From positions 69,963 through 133,962 of the forward strand of contig CALQYS010000001.1 of NCBI GenBank assembly GCA_943348755.1: a stretch of 64,000 nt of DNA, written 5' to 3'. This DNA is from Candidatus Nomurabacteria bacterium (lineage in GTDB: Bacteria; Patescibacteriota; Minisyncoccia; Phycocordibacterales; UBA9973). Below the pieces are notes generated by a model. It saw only the letters and a program-made list of their open reading frames with translations. It was not told the origin of the DNA and ran no database searches. Below, piece after piece: positions 248 to 52,569 of the stretch; positions within the stretch are counted from its first letter, which is position 1, and each line of letters begins with the position of its first letter. The position numbers were made by a program, and so were the translations under genes.

Positions 248-937
248 TTATATCAATCTAAGTAGTTGGTTTGCAAAACGAATTAAATCAGCAACTTCAT
301 TTGGGTCTGTGTAAGAGACTACTCGGTGGCTGGTGGGATTTTTCAAAAGGCCAATAGCTCCAGAAAAAAGGTTATGTTTCGCTAGTTGCTCTGGGACAGG
401 AGAAGTTTTATCAGTTAGTAATCCCGTATTTGCTTTAAATGCTTTGCTCATCAAATCAATGCCTATGTCAGTTTCAGCTAAGTTTGCCTTGCGTCTAACC
501 CTAACTTCTACTTCACGAAAAGCTTGAAATATGGCTGTCTCGTAGTCACCTCTAATAAAAGTAGGTTTTACTTTTTCTATTAAAACTGGATCAAGCCCAG
601 ACGAAGGTAGTAATGAACCTTTTTGATAAACACTAAAATCTTTTTCTTGCAAGATTTTCTTACCTTTCCGGGTAACAAAACTCCATCCATCAGTTGTTCC
701 TGGTTGGGGAGCTAGGAACCCCTCTACTTCTAGCCACATCCAAGCTTCCATTAAAACTCTATAAACATCACCCGATTTTCTTTGAGCATAACTTTCAATT
801 TCTGCATTTGGAAGGCTGAAGTTGTAACGATTTAAGTTGGGCTGAGTTTCTAGGTATCTCAATACAATAGGAGCAATTTCTTCTGGTTGCATTGAGAGTA
901 AGTCTTCTATTGGAGGCAATAATTCTAAGAGTCTCAT
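248..937 (-). CDS. TIGR02391 (Hypoth_Ymh) family protein
   Basis: C-terminal AF..VE..VR, G.DLM..AF, LF.GAIG..KNP.SH pattern; N-terminal EAW.WL...G winged-helix-like segment; start overlaps pepN stop. Confidence 0.75.
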   Translation of the reverse strand: MRLLELLPPIEDLLSMQPEEIAPIVLRYLETQPNLNRYNFSLPNAEIESYAQRKSGDVYRVLMEAWMWLEVEGFLAPQPGTTDGWSFVTRKGKKILQEKDFSVYQKGSLLPSSGLDPVLIEKVKPTFIRGDYETAIFQAFREVEVRVRRKANLAETDIGIDLMSKAFKANTGLLTDKTSPVPEQLAKHNLFSGAIGLLKNPTSHRVVSYTDPNEVADLIRFANQLLRLI

Positions 938-3591
938 AATTTATATTTTCTCTCCAAAAACCTTTCTATTTTCCTTCCGTCTCTTTTGAGCCAAGCGACG
1001 TTGCCTTCGAGCCGCTCGAGGACTTGCTGGATAGAGCGCTTGGCTCCTGGGGCATCGTGGGTGGTAAAGAATTTTTTAAAAGATTTGAGGTGTTTCTCTT
1101 CCGCGCTACTTGAAATAGCCTTCACGAGTCGGGCGAGGGTGTGTCCACCGTCCCCATAGCGGGCGACAAGCTGTACCCACTTCTTTTGTACAAAGTCGAG
1201 CCAGATGTCTCGACCGAGAGGGTTGGCGCCAACAGAGGAGAGGATGCCGATAGTGTCTTGTTTGCGGACATGTTCAGAGAAGGAAAATTCACAAGTTAGT
1301 TTTAATAGTTTGTCATCACAGAAATCACCCAAGGCGCTTCCGATTCTGTTTTTCTCTTCGTGTAATGTCTCTGCTTTGTATTTTTTGATAAAAGTGTCGT
1401 ATTCTTTCTGTCCGCCATGCTTCGCAATAATAGAATAAATAGCTCCGCGGAGGTCAGGATTTACATGTCCACCTGTCTGAAGGCTGGTGAACTTCTTTTT
1501 GGCTTCATCTATTACTTTTTGATCACCCGAACGTCCAGCGCGAGAGATGGCAAGGGAGCGTAGCAAGGCGTCAGTGTGTGCTTCACCTTGCTTCTTTTCC
1601 CAGCCTAATTTACGAGCAAGAGGGGAGAAAAGGGAGAGAGCAAGCTCGTCGAGTTTATTTTTTACTTTATCCTCTTTCGCCAATAAGGCCTCCAGCCTAC
1701 CTATACCCATGGCTAATTCGAGCCAGACGGTGTAATTATCTTCGTTTTTATATGCAGATAGGAACTCGAGAGCATCAGTCGTTGGCACTGTGCCTGCTTC
1801 TGCTAGAGCAAAGAGGTCTCTGATGATGCCGAGTCTGTCTCGCGCAGACAGGAGTTTCTTTTCTACCGGCATTTTTAGCTTTTCTAAAAGTTCTGTGGAA
1901 TATGCTGTTCTGAAAAATCCTGCCTCGCCAAAATTAACCTTTATCCAAAAATCTTGTAAATCAAACTTTTTGCCCCTCGTTGCAGGCACACTTTTTAAAA
2001 AGCCTTGCGCAGGCGGGTAGCCGAGCAGTTCGCTCCCAAAGCTTTGGGAGATAGATTGCTTTATAAAAAGTTGTGCCAAGAAAGAGGGGCTATGACCAAA
2101 AGAGACAGAAACGGGTACTTGCCATAGAGTCTTATCTTTTGTCTTTGCTTTTGACGCTGGACTTGCAAAGAATCTTTCTTGGGAAAGTTTTAATTTGTCA
2201 TTTTTCATCTCTGCTTTTATTACCGGATATCCGGGTTTGCCAGTCCAGTTTTTCATCATCTTTGCCACTGGCTTCTTGGAAACTTTTTCAAACGCTTCCC
2301 ACAAGTGAAAGGTCTCAGTATTTTTATAGCTATGCTTTTTGAGATAATGTCGCAGTCCATCGCGGAAATCTTTTTCACCGAGATAGTCTGCAAGCATGCG
2401 GATGACGGAAGCGCCTTTAGAATAGGACACTTCATCAAATATCTCGCCTATTTCATCAGGGTGATGCACGTGGATCTCGATCGGATGCGTGTGGAGCAGG
2501 GCGTCGAGGCGGAGCGCAGTGCCGAGCTCGTTGGTGGAGAATTGGGTCCAGATGTCCCAATGAGGGAAAAGTTTATCGATCGCGAGGTATTCTATGTATG
2601 AAGCAAAGCCTTCATTTAGCCATAGGTGCGTCCACCATTCCATGGTTACCAAGTTGCCAAACCATTGATGCGCTATTTCATGAGCTATAACGAGAGCCAC
2701 CCATTGCTTGTTGCCGATAGAGGAATGGTTTTCATCTACCAAAAGGGCTGATTCACGATATGTGATGGCACCCCAGTTTTCCATGGCTCCGGAAGTAAAG
2801 TCGGGGATGGCAATCATGTCGAGGACTGGCAGGGGATATGCGATGTCAAAATATTCTTCGTAAAATTCAAGGGTCTTCACGGCGCAGTCGAGGGCGAACT
2901 TCGCTTGGTGTTTTTTCCCTGGGGTGGTAAATACTCGCACCTGTACGTTATTTTTTGTTTTGGATTCTATATATTCAAAGTCTCCAATGATAAACGCTAA
3001 AAGGTAGGTAGACATTTTTGGCGTCGGAGAAAATTTAATTATTTCGTAGCCGGCTTCGTGTTCGGAAACAGAAACTGGCAAAGTGTTTGATATAGCAGTT
3101 TTACCTTTTGGAATGATGAGCGAGACATGGAAAACTGCTTTCTGGGCTGGTTCGTCAAAGCAGGGGAAGGCTCGACGGGCATCTGTGGCTTCAAACTGCG
3201 TCGTAGCCATGTGATGTTCTTTATCACCAATAGTATACTTGCTTCGATAGAAGCCCCGCATCTTGTCATTGAGGATACCTTTAAATACGATAGTTAATTT
3301 TATTTTTCCTTTGTTCTCTTTAGGAATATTTTTAGGGAAAGTGAAAGTGGCTGTCTCAGACTTTTCATCATAAGAAATTTTCGCGAAATCATCTTTAATT
3401 CGGGCTGTCTCTATCTCTATCTCTTTGCAGTGTAGCGTGAGTGTCTTTGTCGGTTTCAAAATAGAGAGAGTAATAGTCTCAATTCCCTCAAAAGTAAAAT
3501 TGTTTAGATCAGGCCGTAATTGAATATCGTACTCTATCGGAACGACGTTTTTAGATAAGCGTACGCTCTTTGCAGTTTGCTTCTTTTGCAT
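934..3591 (-). CDS. pepN: M1 family aminopeptidase (puromycin-sensitive/PepN type with ERAP1-like C-terminal domain), with in-frame structured insert at 1972-2090
   Basis: GAMENWG, HEIAHQW and downstream NEGFA zinc ligands; start moved to MQKKQ (3591), which lies 7 nt from a TATACT -10 box. Confidence 0.93.
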   Translation of the reverse strand: MQKKQTAKSVRLSKNVVPIEYDIQLRPDLNNFTFEGIETITLSILKPTKTLTLHCKEIEIETARIKDDFAKISYDEKSETATFTFPKNIPKENKGKIKLTIVFKGILNDKMRGFYRSKYTIGDKEHHMATTQFEATDARRAFPCFDEPAQKAVFHVSLIIPKGKTAISNTLPVSVSEHEAGYEIIKFSPTPKMSTYLLAFIIGDFEYIESKTKNNVQVRVFTTPGKKHQAKFALDCAVKTLEFYEEYFDIAYPLPVLDMIAIPDFTSGAMENWGAITYRESALLVDENHSSIGNKQWVALVIAHEIAHQWFGNLVTMEWWTHLWLNEGFASYIEYLAIDKLFPHWDIWTQFSTNELGTALRLDALLHTHPIEIHVHHPDEIGEIFDEVSYSKGASVIRMLADYLGEKDFRDGLRHYLKKHSYKNTETFHLWEAFEKVSKKPVAKMMKNWTGKPGYPVIKAEMKNDKLKLSQERFFASPASKAKTKDKTLWQVPVSVSFGHSPSFLAQLFIKQSISQSFGSELLGYPPAQGFLKSVPATRGKKFDLQDFWIKVNFGEAGFFRTAYSTELLEKLKMPVEKKLLSARDRLGIIRDLFALAEAGTVPTTDALEFLSAYKNEDNYTVWLELAMGIGRLEALLAKEDKVKNKLDELALSLFSPLARKLGWEKKQGEAHTDALLRSLAISRAGRSGDQKVIDEAKKKFTSLQTGGHVNPDLRGAIYSIIAKHGGQKEYDTFIKKYKAETLHEEKNRIGSALGDFCDDKLLKLTCEFSFSEHVRKQDTIGILSSVGANPLGRDIWLDFVQKKWVQLVARYGDGGHTLARLVKAISSSAEEKHLKSFKKFFTTHDAPGAKRSIQQVLERLEGNVAWLKRDGRKIERFLERKYKL
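1972..2090 (-). mobile_element. In-frame structured (MITE/REP-like) element inside pepN
   Basis: Nested inverted repeats gcccctc/gaggggc, ggcaca/tgtgcc, ctttttaaaaagc/gctttataaaaag; internal palindrome ctcccaaagctttgggag; core shared with 52412-52569. Confidence 0.8.
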
Positions 3592-3636
3592 GATTTTCAG
3601 TATATCTTTTTTTACGAAAAATGCTAATATACAAGG

Positions 3637-4398
3637 ATGAATACAGGTATCCCGACACAAACATTTCAGATAAAAACGACTGGTTTTGAAGGTCCGTTTG
3701 GGTTGCTTTTGGAGCTAGTAGAAAAGCGGAAACTTCATATTAATGATGTATCTTTGGCATCGGTTACAGAAGACTATTTGAACTATATAAATAAAATGGG
3801 GAATCTACATCCAGCCGAAGTGGCGAGTTTTGTGTTGGTGGCTTCTACTCTCATTTTAATAAAATCAAAATCCCTTTTGCCGAACCTGAGTCTGACCGGT
3901 GAAGAAGAAGGGGATATAAAGAATCTAGAAGAAAGGCTGCGCTTGTTTGAAATTTTCACAAAACTGGGTGTAAATGTGAAAAATATGTTTGGAGAGAAAA
4001 TAATCTTTGCTCCGCTCGAAAGGAAAAACGATGTCTTAGTATTTTTGCCAGATGAGCAGATTACAAAAGAAAGCATGATGGGTTTTGCCAAGGGCGCTCT
4101 TGGAAGTATGCCCAAAAAGGTATCTATGCCAGAAGTGGAGGTGCGAAAAGTCATCAGCATCGAAGAAATGATCAACAATCTGACGGAAAGAATCCAGAAT
4201 TCGGTGAAGATGAGCTTCAAAGATTTTGCAGGTAAGGCTAAAACGAAAGAAGAAAAGGTGTTTGTAATTGTGGGGTTTTTGGCGATGCTGGAATTGGTCA
4301 GAAGTGGTATATTAAACGTTGTGCAAGAGAGCGGTTTCGCGGATATTATTATTGAGAAGCAAGAAGGTCCGATTCAGTTGATGCAAGAAAATTTATAG
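3637..4398 (+). CDS. scpA: Segregation and condensation protein A
   Basis: FEGPFGLLL.L..K N-terminus, IKSKSLLP, C-terminal FLAMLEL; adjacent to scpB. Confidence 0.92.
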   Translation: MNTGIPTQTFQIKTTGFEGPFGLLLELVEKRKLHINDVSLASVTEDYLNYINKMGNLHPAEVASFVLVASTLILIKSKSLLPNLSLTGEEEGDIKNLEERLRLFEIFTKLGVNVKNMFGEKIIFAPLERKNDVLVFLPDEQITKESMMGFAKGALGSMPKKVSMPEVEVRKVISIEEMINNLTERIQNSVKMSFKDFAGKAKTKEEKVFVIVGFLAMLELVRSGILNVVQESGFADIIIEKQEGPIQLMQENL

Positions 4399-4466
4399 AA
4401 ATAAACTTTGCCAGAGCCTTATCCTTATGGCCTAACGCAGGAAAGTTTGATTTTTATAAATTTTCT
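4386..4466. repeat. 81-bp element bounded by ~24-bp imperfect inverted repeats, overlapping the scpA stop codon
   Basis: agaaaatttatagaaataaacttt ... aaagtttgatttttataaattttct; inner TGCCAGAG...CGCAGG matches TGCCCGAG...CGCAGG of the dus insert. Confidence 0.7.
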
Positions 4467-4476
4467 CAGAATTAAA

Positions 4477-5043
4477 ATGATGAATTTAGAATCAAAAATA
4501 GAAGCTATACTTTTCTGGAAAGGGGAACCAATGTCACGCAAAAAGCTGGCAGAAGTTTTGAAAGTTGGTGAGCTTGAAATAAACGAAGGGATAGAAAAAC
4601 TGAAAGAAAATTTAAAACAGAGGGGGATAGTATTAATAGAAAAGGAAAATGAAATCGCTCTCGGCACAGCGCCGGAACTTTCAGATTTGATTGAAAATTT
4701 ACAAAAAGAAGAATTAAATAAAGATCTTTCAAAAGCAAGCCTGGAAACCTTATCAATAGTTTTATATAAAAATGGCGTCAGTCGAGCGGAAATAGACTAT
4801 ATCAGAGGAGTAAACTCTGGTTTTACTTTGCGCGCTTTATCTATCCGCGGATTAGTAGAAAGAATTACCGATCCTAAAGACAACAGGCGTTTCATCTATA
4901 AGCCAAGTTTTGAACTCTTGTCCTACATGGGCGTACAATCAGTGACGGAACTTCCTGACTATGCGGAAGTCCTGGGTTCTATCGATATCGCCGCGAAAAG
5001 TTTAGAAGAGGAATCTAATAATGAAGAAACAGGTACAAACTAA
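4477..5043 (+). CDS. scpB: Segregation and condensation protein B
   Basis: IEAILF..GEP, LSKASLETLSIVLY, SRAEIDYIRGVNS; start set at MMNLES, downstream of the inverted-repeat element. Confidence 0.92.
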   Translation: MMNLESKIEAILFWKGEPMSRKKLAEVLKVGELEINEGIEKLKENLKQRGIVLIEKENEIALGTAPELSDLIENLQKEELNKDLSKASLETLSIVLYKNGVSRAEIDYIRGVNSGFTLRALSIRGLVERITDPKDNRRFIYKPSFELLSYMGVQSVTELPDYAEVLGSIDIAAKSLEEESNNEETGTN

Positions 5044-6754
5044 AAATTGTCAAAACTGTAAAAATGACTTCGTAATAGAGCCGGATGATTTTGGTTTTTA
5101 TGAAAAAATAAAAGTTCCACCACCGACATTTTGTCCAGAATGTCGAAATCAGCGACGGCACTCCTGGAGAAATGACACTTCTTTATATAGTAGAACGTGT
5201 GATTTATGTAAAAAATCTGTAGTGACAATTTATTCTAAAGAATCAAGTGTGACTGTCTACTGTAATAAATGTTGGTGGGGAGACGGATGGGATCCCCTAA
5301 AGTATGCTCAAGATTATGACTTTTCTCGACCTTTTTTTGAACAGTTCAAAGAGCTCTCGTTAAAGGTTCCACATCTAGCTTTAGTGAATGATGATGGCAT
5401 CGCGAGCATGAATTGTGAATATACACAAGATTTTTCGTTTGCAAAAAATTGTTACATGGTTTTTATTGGATGGAAAGTTGAAAATGTTATGTATAGCTAT
5501 TACACTTCTGCTGGTAAAGACATGGTGGACTGCTTAGATATAAAATCAAAAAATGATTTTTTATACGAATGCATGCGATGTGCTACTTCGTATAGATTAA
5601 AATACTCTCAACAGTCAAAAAATTGTATAGATTCTCAATTTCTTTTTAATTGTATGAATTGTACGGATTGTTTTATGTGTACAATGCTTGTTGGTAAGAA
5701 ATATTTTTTTAAAAACAAACAATATTCTAAAGAAGAATATGAAAAAATATTAGAGAGTTATAAACTAGATACATTTAGTGGGGTAAAAAGAGCTCAGAAG
5801 GAGTACGATGAGTTCATCTTAAAATATCCTAAACGATACGTTTATGTTTTTAACAGTAAGGGTTGTATAGGAGATGCCATCTCGTATTCGAAAAATTCAC
5901 AATTTTGTTTTAACGTTAAAAAATCAGAAAATTGTAAGTGGGTAGATAATTCTGATTCCCCAAAAGATTCATATGATATGTCGACTGGGGGTGAACTCAG
6001 CGAATGCTACGAAGATATAACCTGTGATCATTCAAGCCGTAATTTATTTGGAATTTTTTCCTGGAAAAGTCAGGACATGGAATATACTCAGCATTGCCAT
6101 TCTTCCAAATCACTTTTTGGCTGTGTAGGTTTAAGAAATAAAAAATATTGCATTTTTAATAAACAATATTCCAAAGAGCAGTATGAAATACTGGTAGAAA
6201 AAATTAGAAAACAAATGGCAGAATTGCCGTATAAAGATGCTAATGGAATTGTATATAAATATGGAGAATTTTATCCTGCAGAACTATCGTATTTTGGCTA
6301 TAACGAAACAATAGCAAGTGAACGTTTTCCTTTAAGGAAAAATGAAGCTATTTCCAGAAATTTAAACTGGCAAGATAAGGTCCAAAAAACCACTGGCAAG
6401 GAAACTCTTAGGCCAGAAAATATTCCCGATAGCATAAACGAGGTAGGAGAATCTATATTAGACGAGGTACTGGCATGTATTGATTGCACAAGAAATTATA
6501 AAATTGTACCGAACGAGTTTATTTTCTACAAAAAAATGAGTGTTCCGATACCCAGGAGGTGTTTTTATTGCCGGCACGACGCCAGACTCAAGCGTCGCAA
6601 TCCCTTTAAGCTTTGGCATCGAAAATGTATGTGCGACAAGAGGGGGCATGCTAATCATGAAGGAAAATGTGAAATAGAGTTTGAAACTACTTACGCTCCG
6701 GAGCGTCCAGAAATTGTTTATTGCGAAAAATGTTATCAAGCAGAAGTATACTAG
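5021..6754 (+). CDS. Cys-rich zinc-ribbon/repeat protein of unknown function (paralog 1)
   Basis: N-terminal CxxC...IEPDDFGFYEK..P.P.FCP.CR, many CxxC/CxxS short repeats, C-terminal YCEKCYQAEVY; two paralogs at 35.9-39.3 kb. Confidence 0.85.
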   Translation: MKKQVQTKNCQNCKNDFVIEPDDFGFYEKIKVPPPTFCPECRNQRRHSWRNDTSLYSRTCDLCKKSVVTIYSKESSVTVYCNKCWWGDGWDPLKYAQDYDFSRPFFEQFKELSLKVPHLALVNDDGIASMNCEYTQDFSFAKNCYMVFIGWKVENVMYSYYTSAGKDMVDCLDIKSKNDFLYECMRCATSYRLKYSQQSKNCIDSQFLFNCMNCTDCFMCTMLVGKKYFFKNKQYSKEEYEKILESYKLDTFSGVKRAQKEYDEFILKYPKRYVYVFNSKGCIGDAISYSKNSQFCFNVKKSENCKWVDNSDSPKDSYDMSTGGELSECYEDITCDHSSRNLFGIFSWKSQDMEYTQHCHSSKSLFGCVGLRNKKYCIFNKQYSKEQYEILVEKIRKQMAELPYKDANGIVYKYGEFYPAELSYFGYNETIASERFPLRKNEAISRNLNWQDKVQKTTGKETLRPENIPDSINEVGESILDEVLACIDCTRNYKIVPNEFIFYKKMSVPIPRRCFYCRHDARLKRRNPFKLWHRKCMCDKRGHANHEGKCEIEFETTYAPERPEIVYCEKCYQAEVY

Positions 6755-35887: not shown

Positions 35888-37555
35888 TCAATACACCTCT
35901 TGCTGGTAACATTTCTCGCAGTAAATTTGGTATATTTTCTGATCCTCGGGTCTATAAGATGTTTGTATCAGATTACCACATTTAGCACAATTTCCACTCC
36001 ATAAGTCACGCGGGTTTCTTTTACTCATTCTGGCTTCATGTCGGCAGTTAAAGCACTTAGCTGGCAGGGCTAATCTATTCTTTTTATAAAAATTCACCTC
36101 TCTATTTATTAATCTGTAATTTTTCTCGCAATTTTTACAAGTTAGAATTTCATTAACTAATGCATCGCTGTATTCTTCAGGATTTTTAGGTAAATTTTCG
36201 TATTCTATTGTCCCCTGTCCAGTTGTGCTTGGTATATTATCTTTCCATTTAAAACCTTGCCTCGTAGCTTCCTCTTTTGTAATTGGCATGTACTCATTTA
36301 CTATCGCTTCATTATAAGCAAATGGGCTAATAAATGCTGGAAAGAATTTACCCCAGTCTCCACTTTCTTTCATCTGCGCGATTATTTTTTCTTTTAGCGT
36401 AAAGTATTCTTCCTTTGAATATTGTTTATTTAAAATACAGTAAGATTTCTTGCGTAGACCATAACATCCAAAAACTTCATTACAGTTGTGACAATTATTT
36501 GAGTAATAAATATTATGGCAATCTACTATCATCTCAGAGGCTATGGCTATGTTGCTGTTGCTTATAGTCATAGCCTGATAACATTCAGATAGATCGCTGG
36601 TGAAAGAAATATCATACGAATCTATGGCTTCTCTAACTGTAAAGCAATGCCTAGAGTTTTCACCGCTTTTTATATCAAAGGAATCATGTACATTGTGTGC
36701 ATTATATATATGGTTACCAGAAACATCATTATTGTGAGAGCCAAAGAAAGAGCGCTGAGGAGTTATTTTACGTAAACTCTCCATCTCTTTTAAAATATAT
36801 TCGATAGAAGACTTTTCATTTAGGGGGTGTTCTAATAAGAATTTTTTGTATTCTTCTTTTGTAACTTGTTTATTGAAAATATGATAGGACTTGTTTACTT
36901 GCCCCACGCATCCGATGCAATTCAAACAGTTTCGACAATCAAAAAGTCCAATGGAGTCTACACAAGCTTCACATTCTTGTGAATAGAAAAGTTTCGCTGA
37001 GCCTAGGCAATCAACACAGTCGTAACAAGATTCTGATTTAAATAAATATAAATTATCAATAGAATCTCGGCAATTCCAAACTATGTGTCCATAATCGCAG
37101 TCTTCGTTCTCAAGAGCACCAAAAAGTAAATAGCAATTTTTACAGTCAATTATTTGATTAGTGTAATCGCAATTAACACTTCTAACGGCATTACGAGCCG
37201 GATGTGGTACAGCGTTAAAAAGAAGAGCGAGTTGCTTAAAAAATGACTTACTTAGATCAACATCTACAGCATAATCCATGGGTTCCCAGCTATCCCCCCA
37301 CCAGATCTCATTATCATAAACTGGGAATTTTGTATCTTCGTTGTACATCGAGATGATCATTTTACCGGATTTACTGCAGGGTCTTTTGTATAAAGTCTTA
37401 AAATTCCTAAAGGATGCACGAAGTTGCTGACGACATTGTGGGCACTGTTCCGGGGCAGGTATTCCCATCTTTTCATAAAAGCCAAAATCATCCGGCTCGA
37501 TGACGAAATCTTCGTTGCACTTTTTACATATTCGATTTTCGCTCTTGTGTTCCAT
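35888..37555 (-). CDS. Cys-rich zinc-ribbon/repeat protein of unknown function (paralog 2)
   Basis: CKKC..DFVIEPDDFGFYEK...CPQCR ... YCEKCYQQEVY. Confidence 0.85.
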   Translation of the reverse strand: MEHKSENRICKKCNEDFVIEPDDFGFYEKMGIPAPEQCPQCRQQLRASFRNFKTLYKRPCSKSGKMIISMYNEDTKFPVYDNEIWWGDSWEPMDYAVDVDLSKSFFKQLALLFNAVPHPARNAVRSVNCDYTNQIIDCKNCYLLFGALENEDCDYGHIVWNCRDSIDNLYLFKSESCYDCVDCLGSAKLFYSQECEACVDSIGLFDCRNCLNCIGCVGQVNKSYHIFNKQVTKEEYKKFLLEHPLNEKSSIEYILKEMESLRKITPQRSFFGSHNNDVSGNHIYNAHNVHDSFDIKSGENSRHCFTVREAIDSYDISFTSDLSECYQAMTISNSNIAIASEMIVDCHNIYYSNNCHNCNEVFGCYGLRKKSYCILNKQYSKEEYFTLKEKIIAQMKESGDWGKFFPAFISPFAYNEAIVNEYMPITKEEATRQGFKWKDNIPSTTGQGTIEYENLPKNPEEYSDALVNEILTCKNCEKNYRLINREVNFYKKNRLALPAKCFNCRHEARMSKRNPRDLWSGNCAKCGNLIQTSYRPEDQKIYQIYCEKCYQQEVY

Positions 37556-37602
37556 TTCTATTTTACTTTATTTAAATAAATTACTTTACTAAACTAAAGT
37601 AG

Positions 37603-39264
37603 CTAGTATATCTCCTGTTGATAACATTTCTCACAGTATACTATTTCTGGACGATCTGGCGAATAGCTTGTTTCGAATTCATTCATACAGTCTTGATTCA
37701 TGCATTTTTGATGCCAAAGCTTTCTTTCACCAGCAAGTTTTATTCTCTTTTCATGTCTACAATTTGGACATTTTCGTGGTATAGGCAAGCCCATCTTTCG
37801 GTAAAGATTGAGCTCGTAAGGCACTATTTTGTAATTTTTTCCACATTCACAAACCAAAACCTCTTTCATTATTTCGTCTTTTACATCATCTATGTTGTCT
37901 GGCAAAAGATCCATATCTACGGTTTCCTGCTTGTATGTGTTTGTATTTTTTTCCCACCAAGGTAGAGAAAGTTTTTCACAATCCTCCTTTGTTAATGGAA
38001 AATATTCTTGAGCTACTGTCTCATTATATCCAAAATTACTTATACCGATCGGGAAAAATTCTCCCCATTCGCCAGTTTTTTTCATATGTTCTATTATTTT
38101 ATTTTTAAGGATGAGATATTCTTCTTTGGAATATTGTTTGTTTAAAATACAATATTTCTTTTTTGACATGCCTATACAACCGAATAAATCAGAAGAATTG
38201 TTGCATTTATCGCAATACCAAATGTCATTCGAGTAATGTGAGGCATTGCAGAAGCCGGAGCTGCCTAAATTCAAAGTGCTTATTAGTTCGATATTAAAAG
38301 ATGGTTTATATAAGGAAAAATCTAGGTCATAACATTCTTTCGCGTCCAATACATCGCATAGATATTTTCCATTTTCAGCATTACTGACATCGAAACTCTC
38401 TTTTACATTCTTACAATTAAAAAGATCATCTCCTGTGCAGTTCGTACTATTTATTAGATTAGCGAACTTCGTAATCGCTTTTTTGGAATACTTCCCGAAT
38501 TCTTTTTTCAGATTTTCTAAAGCAGAAAAAGATTTTTTATTAAAGCCCGAAACAATTTTATTGTATTCTTCCCTGCTGTATGGTTTATTAAAAATATGGT
38601 ATGACTTATTTCTCAAGTTCCAGCACCCAAAACAATCGGTACAACTCCTACAATCATACATAAAATGACAATTGCTGCAGTCCGTGCACTTATTTAGAAA
38701 AGATGAGCCGTAGATTTTATGGCAATTCACGCATTCGTAATTTAATTCAGAATTGTAAACAAAAGAGCAATCTATGCAGTCCTTGGAGTATTTAATAAAT
38801 TTACAAAAGTAGCAATATTCGTTTTTCTCTCCAGCTATATCAAAGTAACAATAATTATCATCTCCGCAATAGCTTACATAATCGCTATTTTTACAATTTA
38901 CGATGTCCAGTGAAAGTGTCGGGACTTTTTTATAAAGATCTTTAAATTGTTCAAAAAATGGCTTGGAAAAATTAAAATCTTTCCCATACGAAAGCGGGTT
39001 AGACTTATCGCTCCACCAGCAGGATGGACACCAGACGGCTTGCTCCTTATCTCCATGATAATATGAAATTATTTTTTGATTACATGAATTACAATTACGC
39101 CAGTAAAAAACCCTTTCGTTTCTGATGGCGAGTCTGCGCTGATGCCGGCATTCTGGGCAAAATGTCGGTGGTGGGACTTTTATTTTTTCATAAAATCCAA
39201 AATCATCCGGTTCGATCACGAATTCCTTTTTACAATTCTGGCAAATTTTATTTTCCGCTTTCAT
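37603..39264 (-). CDS. Cys-rich zinc-ribbon/repeat protein of unknown function (paralog 3)
   Basis: CQNC..EFVIEPDDFGFYEKIKVPPPTFCPECR ... YCEKCYQQEIY; start overlaps purL stop. Confidence 0.85.
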   Translation of the reverse strand: MKAENKICQNCKKEFVIEPDDFGFYEKIKVPPPTFCPECRHQRRLAIRNERVFYWRNCNSCNQKIISYYHGDKEQAVWCPSCWWSDKSNPLSYGKDFNFSKPFFEQFKDLYKKVPTLSLDIVNCKNSDYVSYCGDDNYCYFDIAGEKNEYCYFCKFIKYSKDCIDCSFVYNSELNYECVNCHKIYGSSFLNKCTDCSNCHFMYDCRSCTDCFGCWNLRNKSYHIFNKPYSREEYNKIVSGFNKKSFSALENLKKEFGKYSKKAITKFANLINSTNCTGDDLFNCKNVKESFDVSNAENGKYLCDVLDAKECYDLDFSLYKPSFNIELISTLNLGSSGFCNASHYSNDIWYCDKCNNSSDLFGCIGMSKKKYCILNKQYSKEEYLILKNKIIEHMKKTGEWGEFFPIGISNFGYNETVAQEYFPLTKEDCEKLSLPWWEKNTNTYKQETVDMDLLPDNIDDVKDEIMKEVLVCECGKNYKIVPYELNLYRKMGLPIPRKCPNCRHEKRIKLAGERKLWHQKCMNQDCMNEFETSYSPDRPEIVYCEKCYQQEIY

Positions 39265-51368: not shown

Positions 51369-52406
51369 TCAAATTTTACTCAAAAATTCATTAACCAATG
51401 TTTCCACTTGTGATGCATTTTCTGTTTCCATCAACTTCATGCGGAGTTCTTTGGTACCATCGAAGCCATTACAGTACGCCTTATAGTGCTTTTTCATGAT
51501 GGCGAAGTTTTTATGTTTACCGAGCTTTTCTTCAAAAAGTTTCGTGTGTTCTACCATCACTCGTAGTTTTTCTGAAATTGAGGGCACGAAGATACTTCCA
51601 ATTTTTCGGCCCTGCGCCCTTCCCCCGAGTACGGGGGTGGGACCCTCGGGCAGCTCAAAATTGGAAGTATCTTCTTTGCTGAATAGCCATGGATTCCCAA
51701 ATATCGCTCTTCCGAGCATCACACCGTCACAACCAGTCTCTTTTATTTTTTGCTTTGCATCTTCTAAATTCAAAGCATCACCATTTCCCAGTATCAAAGT
51801 ATCTTTTCTTAGTTCATCACGAATCTCTACTACCCTTTTCATCAAATCCCAATGCGCAGGCACGTCAGACATTTCTTTACGTGTACGTAGGTGTATTATA
51901 AGGGCAGCGATATTTTCTTTTAGAAGCTCCGGTATCCAAGTCTCAATTTCATTTTTATTGTAGCCAATACGAGTCTTCACAGAGACAGGTAGTCCGCCCC
52001 CACCTTCGATCGCAGCACGGATACATTCCCGAGCGAGCGCTGGATTTTTCATCATGGCGGCCCCGGAACATTGCTTTTCGATGGATTTATCCGGACAGCC
52101 CATATTTATGTCTATGCCGTCAAAGCCCAGCTCTTTGCAAAGCTCCGAAGCCTTTTTAATGTTTTCCGGCTTGGAGCCAAATATTTGTGCCACGATCGGA
52201 TGTTCGTTTTCTCCATAGATAAAATCAATCAAGAGTTTTTCTCTAGCAACGGGATGCGCAAGACCATCCGCAGAGACAAACTCGGTCCAAAAGACATCTG
52301 GCTTACCGTACTTAGCGATAATTTGCCTAAAAACACAGTCTGTGACATCTGCCATCGGCGCTAAGGCGAAAATAGGTTTCTTAAGTTTTGTCCAAAAATT
52401 CTGCAT
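51369..52406 (-). CDS. dus: tRNA-dihydrouridine synthase, with 29-codon insert
   Basis: LAPMA.VTD, DINMGCP, SVKTRIG, H.RT, GNGD, G.M.GR...GNPWLF, MKKH. Confidence 0.94.
   Translation of the reverse strand: MQNFWTKLKKPIFALAPMADVTDCVFRQIIAKYGKPDVFWTEFVSADGLAHPVAREKLLIDFIYGENEHPIVAQIFGSKPENIKKASELCKELGFDGIDINMGCPDKSIEKQCSGAAMMKNPALARECIRAAIEGGGGLPVSVKTRIGYNKNEIETWIPELLKENIAALIIHLRTRKEMSDVPAHWDLMKRVVEIRDELRKDTLILGNGDALNLEDAKQKIKETGCDGVMLGRAIFGNPWLFSKEDTSNFELPEGPTPVLGGRAQGRKIGSIFVPSISEKLRVMVEHTKLFEEKLGKHKNFAIMKKHYKAYCNGFDGTKELRMKLMETENASQVETLVNEFLSKI
51588..51674. mobile_element. 87-bp in-frame element with perfect 18-bp terminal inverted repeats in dus
   Basis: gaagatacttccaatttt (51588-51605) / aaaattggaagtatcttc (51657-51674); GC-rich inner hairpin cccccg-agta-cggggg. 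Confidence 0.85.
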
Positions 52407-52411
52407 ATTTT

Positions 52412-52569
52412 AGTGACAGAAAGTATCTTTTATAAAGCAATCTATCTAGCAAAGCTTTGCTAGCGAACTTCTCGTCGCTCAAGAAAATAATAAATGGCAA
52501 AAGTCTACAATGCCATTTTTATTTTCTAAGCTCCTGCGAAAGGCTTTCTAAAAGAAACTTTCTGTCACT
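52412..52569 (+). mobile_element. 158-bp intergenic multi-hairpin element, sibling of the pepN insert
   Basis: 27-bp terminal inverted repeats (25/27), palindrome ctagcaaagctttgctag, second hairpin 52482-52527; core nearly identical to the reverse complement of 1991-2069. Confidence 0.85.

Follow-up and report, generated by a model that had tools for sequence, protein, structure and literature searches.

The 87-bp hairpin at positions 51588..51674 (minus strand), which lies in frame within the dus gene of a Candidatus Nomurabacteria bacterium, is with a probability of roughly 0.6 an old copy of a hairpin repeat dispersed among Patescibacteria; the repeat is probably selfish and non-autonomous, working as folded single-stranded DNA, and in dus it is predicted to be translated as filler. 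The window analysed comprises 64,000 nucleotides of a genome of 694 kb in 13 contigs (94.8% complete), which will be referred to as G000, and the repeat as family A. The host gene (51369..52406, minus strand) is intact and encodes a tRNA-dihydrouridine synthase of 345 amino acids. Its open reading frame (minus strand, 52406..51369) matched PF01207 with an E value of 1.7e-63, and the motif N101-M-G-C104-P105 was unchanged across 81 aligned orthologues; we take the cysteine of this motif to be the catalytic residue, the enzyme activity itself being predicted. An AlphaFold model based on the 81-orthologue alignment reached a pLDDT of 90.7 and fell below 50 solely at residues 248-265, which form a coil joining the barrel to the helical domain; prediction from the single sequence (pLDDT 37) was unusable. 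Dus structures ranked first in a Foldseek search with the model (1vhn, E 3.9e-22). The PF01207 domain, the cysteine motif and the barrel with its helical domain, by which membership of the Dus family is judged, are all present.

On the basis of its inverted repeat and its folding, the element, read as Dus residues 245-273, is composed of three parts, all on the minus strand. A 5′ arm of 18 nt (51657..51674) combines a locus-specific outer part with the T-tract of the family, and is complemented perfectly by a 3′ arm of 18 nt (51588..51605). They enclose a GC-rich core of 51 nt (51606..51656), in which the motifs GAGGGTCCCAC and AAGGGCGCAGG flank a variable apex hairpin, consisting of 6 bp and a 4-nt loop in the dus copy. 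The structured strand of this copy is the mRNA strand, the minority orientation. An initial annotation had reported 87 bp with perfect 18-bp inverted repeats in an open frame, and this was confirmed: the repeat stops at both ends, and the element starts in frame at codon 245 and encodes the 29 residues described. It does not, however, directly follow GNPWLF, as two residues (SK) intervene, and the count of exactly 29 codons is correct for the encoded residues but not for the gain, which is 84 nt or 28 codons over the commonest short linker. The AlphaFold model also supports the proposed site between TIM barrel and helical domain, the element being a linker insertion. The host Val-Pro codons at 51583..51587 (minus strand) are probably the decayed tip of an outer stem that would pair with 51675-51679; this tip is partially paired in the folds. 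In the congener-type copy a weaker stem extends about 5 nt further per side, to 97 nt in total, so that 87 bp represents the end of perfect pairing and not a demonstrated insertion boundary. No closely related empty allele of the dus insert was found.

Folded as RNA, the minus strand of the element yielded -53.8 kcal/mol (z -8.0) and the plus strand -48.3 (z -6.5); the respective values as DNA were -30.6 (z -8.2) and -27.4 (z -7.0), and none of 200 shuffles was equally stable in any of the four folds. No Rfam family reached its threshold, the best score over the element being 19.3 bits against a cut-off of 100. An assembly artefact was rejected as far as contigs allow, since two runs of one study each contain a contig that spans the insert without a difference; either run may itself have been a source of the assembly, so that their agreement is not independent. 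The listed pieces of a further run, X3, do not cover the insert, which counts neither for nor against it. A contig of depth 4.5 in run X1 carried 27 nt in place of 111 (net 84). A record of equal depth showed 15 differences among 78 letters in another part of dus, and this short-linker contig therefore likely derives from another organism and does not represent an allele.

The dus linker is a landing site reused by many unrelated hairpins. From 92 dus loci fetched, 88 could be parsed, in a sample biased by rank towards long linkers, whose counts are therefore no measure of prevalence. In 24 of the 88 the linker had at most 15 amino acids, most commonly 11 (33 nt, 19/88), and the remaining 64 were longer, all of them multiples of three and stop-free; the other five frames of these 64 contained stops in 29-53 cases. 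The earlier proposal that selection keeps the insert in frame is thus borne out. A fold z of -2.5 or below was obtained for 56 of the 64 long linkers versus 2 of the 24 short ones, and single linkage placed the long linkers in 26 clusters. In a quick tree of 74 linker-free Dus proteins from the 92 loci, which was weakly resolved (12 of 71 branches at 95 or above), several well-supported sister dus genes carried different inserts, including that of genome G201 beside G000 and its congener G017. Family A itself occurs at dus in both orientations. A pre-existing micro-palindrome as target was unconvincing, as 18 empty linkers offered stems of 1-4 bp only. In two dus genes (L095 and L013, of G213 and G002) extra residues were observed at a second site, following the first helix in the C-terminal domain; those in L095 are long and GC-rich.

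Comparison of 37 G000 elements with G017 yielded 27 syntenic sites, 10 elements having none. The same family was present at four of the 27 and another hairpin at 11 (six called by motif, five by eye), and 12 seemed empty. The length difference between the genomes was a multiple of three at 11 of 11 coding sites and 4 of 16 non-coding sites, demonstrating that the frame is a filter and not a property of the element.

The insert had been considered recent since its repeats are undecayed, which the comparison with G017 refutes. Of 687 fragments, 305 could be aligned between the two genomes, with a mean identity of 77%, and 60 of 96 four-fold sites of dus outside the insert have changed; nevertheless, G017 carries the same insert, with 9 of 87 nt and 4 of 15 four-fold sites differing. 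Two arm pairs have changed on both sides, each with an amino-acid change (K268E, G270R), and two further pairs have turned into wobbles. Because G017 carries the insert with such compensatory changes despite the divergence of the gene, the dus insert is older than the split of G000 and G017, and its perfect arms reflect maintenance, not youth. Four elements shared by both genomes provided 84 stem pairs, of which 62 were unchanged, 11 were double changes keeping Watson-Crick pairing, 8 changed to or from a wobble and 3 changed otherwise. Double changes breaking the pairing did not occur; by our own arithmetic chance would give about 3 double changes in the 84 pairs.

Searches with nhmmer (E ≤ 0.01) detected nine family A copies in G000 and seven in the 614 kb fetched of G017. 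A pattern of the two core motifs matched 86 stretches in GTDB genomes; 61 of the 80 fetched were titled as Patescibacteria groups, all named carriers belonged to such groups, and no title among the 80 referred to Rickettsia. Phage carriage was rejected, as IMG/VR gave no match to the two-motif pattern and three to its left half, none with the right half. Removal of one duplicate left 79 distinct copies, of which 46 lie within an open frame and 32 are spanned by none, the remaining one being truncated. The in-frame copies occupy housekeeping genes that, classified by eye, include uvrC, uvrD, mnmA, recG and dus; the gene runs on the strand opposite to the element in 36 cases and shares its strand in 10; intergenic copies, also judged by eye, were oriented 20:6 against the mRNA strand, with six unclear. 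Copies span mostly 70-130 nt and use several frames and both strands. There are 51 different apex sequences, at least four pairs are formed in 71 of 79 apices, and the apex stems co-vary. Nor are the 18-bp arms terminal repeats of the family, as each copy bears its own: among 83 copies the outer arms differ, and the inner T/A tract alone is common to all. (Two further partial or weak copies were left out of the analyses of pairing register and loops.) By regular expression, 56 of 83 left-half matches lacked the right half; inspected by eye, most of these were fortuitous hits on Walker-A codons, with a few variant or truncated copies among them. A gene-bearing long form was rejected, because no left-half match had the exact right motif further on. 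One recG-like site (L337, compared with L172 and L373) lacks the right half of the element and is a possible intermediate of decay.

The inner and outer parts of the stem differ in their mismatches. In the 36 copies with the open frame on the other strand, the inner 12 pairs showed G·T versus A·C on the element strand at 38:2, and the ratio was 7:3 in same-strand and 13:2 in non-coding copies; these inner G·T lie at family-inherited positions and describe the master form, not independent events. Outer pairs showed no clear bias (22:18, 3:6 and 9:3, respectively), and metagenome copies, partly from the same sites, gave 12:1 for inner and 6:6 for outer pairs. GC skew follows gene direction, and the replication-strand test was thus uninformative, transcription and replication not being separable. 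At offsets 20-22 from the core pairing falls to 0.53-0.61, with GNA opposite GNA in 18 of 83 copies. GNA motifs form stable DNA loops. The first three bases of the dus 5′ arm (GAA) fall in the register of this unpaired loop, and the terminal GAA/TTC pair sits there as if copying had closed it. Closed loops were not enriched over neighbouring offsets (7 versus 0-8), and a general signature of loop closure was rejected, leaving single suggestive cases (the dus copy, L219 and one on contig C3 of G000).

A host origin of the arms received partial support, more for other inserts than for the G000 dus copy. Among 26 long dus linkers that retain the host proline, eight had a 5′ side agreeing with the inverted x-P-[S/T] codons at no fewer than 8 of 9 positions, a level reached in 0.2% of shuffles, and the other 18 fell below 8/9; on average 6.5 positions matched with own codons versus 5.3 with those of other genomes. 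The dus copy of G000 reached 5/9 at the tip described above. At some sites empty in G017 one arm starts with the last codons of the host gene, and at several others no such arm was visible. The contrast between inner and outer pairs described above suggests that the core acts as a single folded strand of DNA, rather than as mRNA, and that a strand-neutral copying mechanism such as template switching maintains the outer arms. In bacteria template switching perfects inverted repeats (PMC5941160).

G000 contained no match to Y1_Tnp or DUF559, and its two GIY-YIG matches had no family A core nearby, a negative that applies to a genome 94.8% complete. Among genomes of the genus, matches were present in 144 of 200 for Y1, 65 of 120 for DUF559 and 117 of 120 for GIY-YIG, the Y1 and GIY-YIG tallies including genomes marked unpublished. 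Family A was found beside none of 89 loci, comprising 30 DUF559, 30 GIY-YIG (without L291) and 29 RAYT-like loci (without L230), the latter being the top-scoring ones only and a small part of all Y1 matches. Conversely, inspection by eye of the 400-nt flanks of the 32 non-coding copies revealed no adjoining mobiliser gene. Other hairpins do accompany such genes. At 2 of the 29 RAYT-like loci, hairpins on both sides of the gene were 100% identical over 21-23 nt to two dus inserts of congeners, and these two inserts are inverted dimers of the flanking hairpin. Of the 30 DUF559 loci, 16 carried hairpins that matched nine dus inserts, and in six of these loci the gene had hairpins on either side.

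Several other structures were observed at these loci, in the window and in G000. RAYT-like genes of about 210 amino acids at L252, L258, L250, L251, L253-L255 and L257 lie between short perfect palindromes that start with TGTCAA and vary in their centres. DUF559 genes at L274, L275, L276, L283, L285 and L286 have BoxC/TM-like hairpins on both sides, a REPtron-like layout with a non-HUH nuclease. A second hairpin element of 158 bp and another family (52412..52569) occupies the gap between an FtsQ-type POTRA gene and dus and has no counterpart in that gap in G017; its apex sequence differs in contigs of all three runs. A hairpin akin to it (1954-2086) lies in frame in an M1 aminopeptidase gene (934-3660, minus strand), and an 81-bp copy of a further family with about 10 genome copies is located at a gene boundary (4386-4466). 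Long repeats of 70-89% identity, direct and inverted, involve 5037-6754 and 36398-39255. On contigs C3, C4, C6 and C8 of G000 a palindrome of 44-57 bp with arms GGTTTTGCGAA is repeated, with inverted pairs on C3 and C6. Two large serine recombinase genes (PF00239, PF07508, PF13408; L443:434-2080 on C11 and L444:562-2160 on C6) contain several perfect inverted repeats of 14-17 bp, two of which persist in a G017 homologue although the sequence they enclose has diverged, hinting at a structured RNA or a single-stranded form.

Among known systems, Rickettsia palindromic elements resemble family A in being dispersed palindromes with several families per genome, about half of them in frame in housekeeping genes (46/79 for family A), as summarised in PMC10969869 and PMC3733652. 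They differ in size (about 150 bp versus 70-130 bp). Family A further gives different peptides by frame and strand with no conserved peptide, each locus has arms of its own whose two sides change together, a CGTC end is lacking, and one site, the dus linker, is reused by many families. Like the hairpins of the REP/REPIN-RAYT (TnpA-REP) and TIRYT systems, which are short, in some cases intragenic and in frame, and thought to be handled as single-stranded DNA (PMC3733652, PMC6006769), family A forms a hairpin, but it has a longer bulged core and variable arms. Neither end of the dus copy shows the GTAG or CGTC foot of those hairpins, and none of the 29 RAYT-like genes had family A beside it, whereas two other dus inserts do match such loci. 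Nine congener dus inserts, including that of the G201 sister gene, were likened by eye to BoxC/PIT/TM triplex-motif repeats as characterized in PMC4666352, according to which E. coli TMs are always intergenic and without link to mobile elements; the element at 51588..51674 is not of this type. Template-switch inverted repeats (PMC5941160) and the coding palindromes of Nematomorpha mitochondria (PMC6649704) likewise keep perfect arms despite amino-acid changes, but their arms are ordinary host sequence, whereas those of family A enclose a dispersed conserved core.

A MITE-type element bounded by 18-bp terminal inverted repeats, recently inserted and retained since 87 is divisible by three, would also agree with the perfect arms and the open frame, and family A is shorter than 500 bp, non-coding, multicopy and a stable stem-loop, size and stem-loop agreeing with MITE descriptions in PMC10969869. 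This explanation is nevertheless very improbable. Recency is contradicted by the insert in G017 with 60/96 four-fold changes around it, the outer arms differ at every locus so that shared terminal repeats are reduced to the inner T/A tract, and the net gain is 84 nt. A target-site duplication was not seen, as no direct repeat borders the ends of the dus copy, although an old copy could have lost one. A cognate transposase with the same ends was not found among the Y1, DUF559 and GIY-YIG loci. Judged by its unshared ends and the missing direct duplication, family A is not a MITE. Even harder to believe is an intron-like behaviour, in which the hairpin would be cut out of the transcript or skipped by translating ribosomes: the long stem is very stable, yet all 64 long dus inserts are in frame and stop-free where other frames often have stops, and in most coding copies the strand that is translated is not the wobble-bearing one.

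A domesticated element, kept by the host as a DNA signal (for protein binding, replication or the nucleoid) or as antisense RNA, with selection instead of conversion pairing the arms, appears rather unlikely. It would account for the slow change of the insert (4/15 versus 60/96 four-fold changes in the rest of dus), the co-varying apex stems and the orientation against the mRNA strand (36:10 in genes, 20:6 between them), but 23 of the 27 syntenic G017 sites are empty or hold another family, 24 of 88 dus linkers are short, and the wobble bias that selection for a fold of one strand should produce is missing from the outer arms. We give still less credence to a spread without any dedicated mobiliser, in which recombination or gene conversion between hairpins, including uptake from relatives, would replace resident cores while template switching makes the stems. 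Replacement at the same site is indeed frequent (11/27, and at sister dus genes), both orientations occur at dus and no partner gene was found; against it, copies are also present at sites seeming empty in G017 (12/27), replaced sites often have unrelated arms with little homology, and nuclease or transposase genes flanked by hairpins of co-resident families do exist.

If the dus insert is an old copy of a selfish hairpin repeat, as we favour, the folded strand might be recognised and placed by an enzyme acting in trans, either an endonuclease or a HUH transposase. By fold-back or template-switch copying, adjacent host bases could then be added to the outer arm in inverted form, and the same copying would later make the arms perfect again after mutation. 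Purifying selection would remove only alleles that break the frame or the fold, and the insert is predicted to be translated as an unstructured filler in the Dus linker. A wider proposal is put forward tentatively and strikes us as doubtful: these repeats might represent an undescribed kind of CPR mobile DNA, consisting of gene-less hairpins of which one folded strand is recognised by its GNA loops and bulged core, served by enzymes in trans, copying the target in inverted form and preferentially replacing other hairpins, with DUF559 (Vsr-like) as a second class of mobiliser beside RAYT and the dus linker as a shared landing pad recording all of them. A literature search, whose scope left most subscription papers and all supplements outside, gave no description of such elements in CPR.

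The dus insert shows that perfect inverted repeats are no clock for the age of an insertion. In streamlined CPR genomes the set of in-frame hairpins keeps changing, and the loop of one enzyme is thereby remodelled repeatedly. The dus linker offers one alignable site for comparing hairpin families, their candidate mobilisers (RAYT-like and DUF559) and the way in which locus-specific arms arise, and the movement and upkeep of REP- and RPE-like repeats thereby become more testable.
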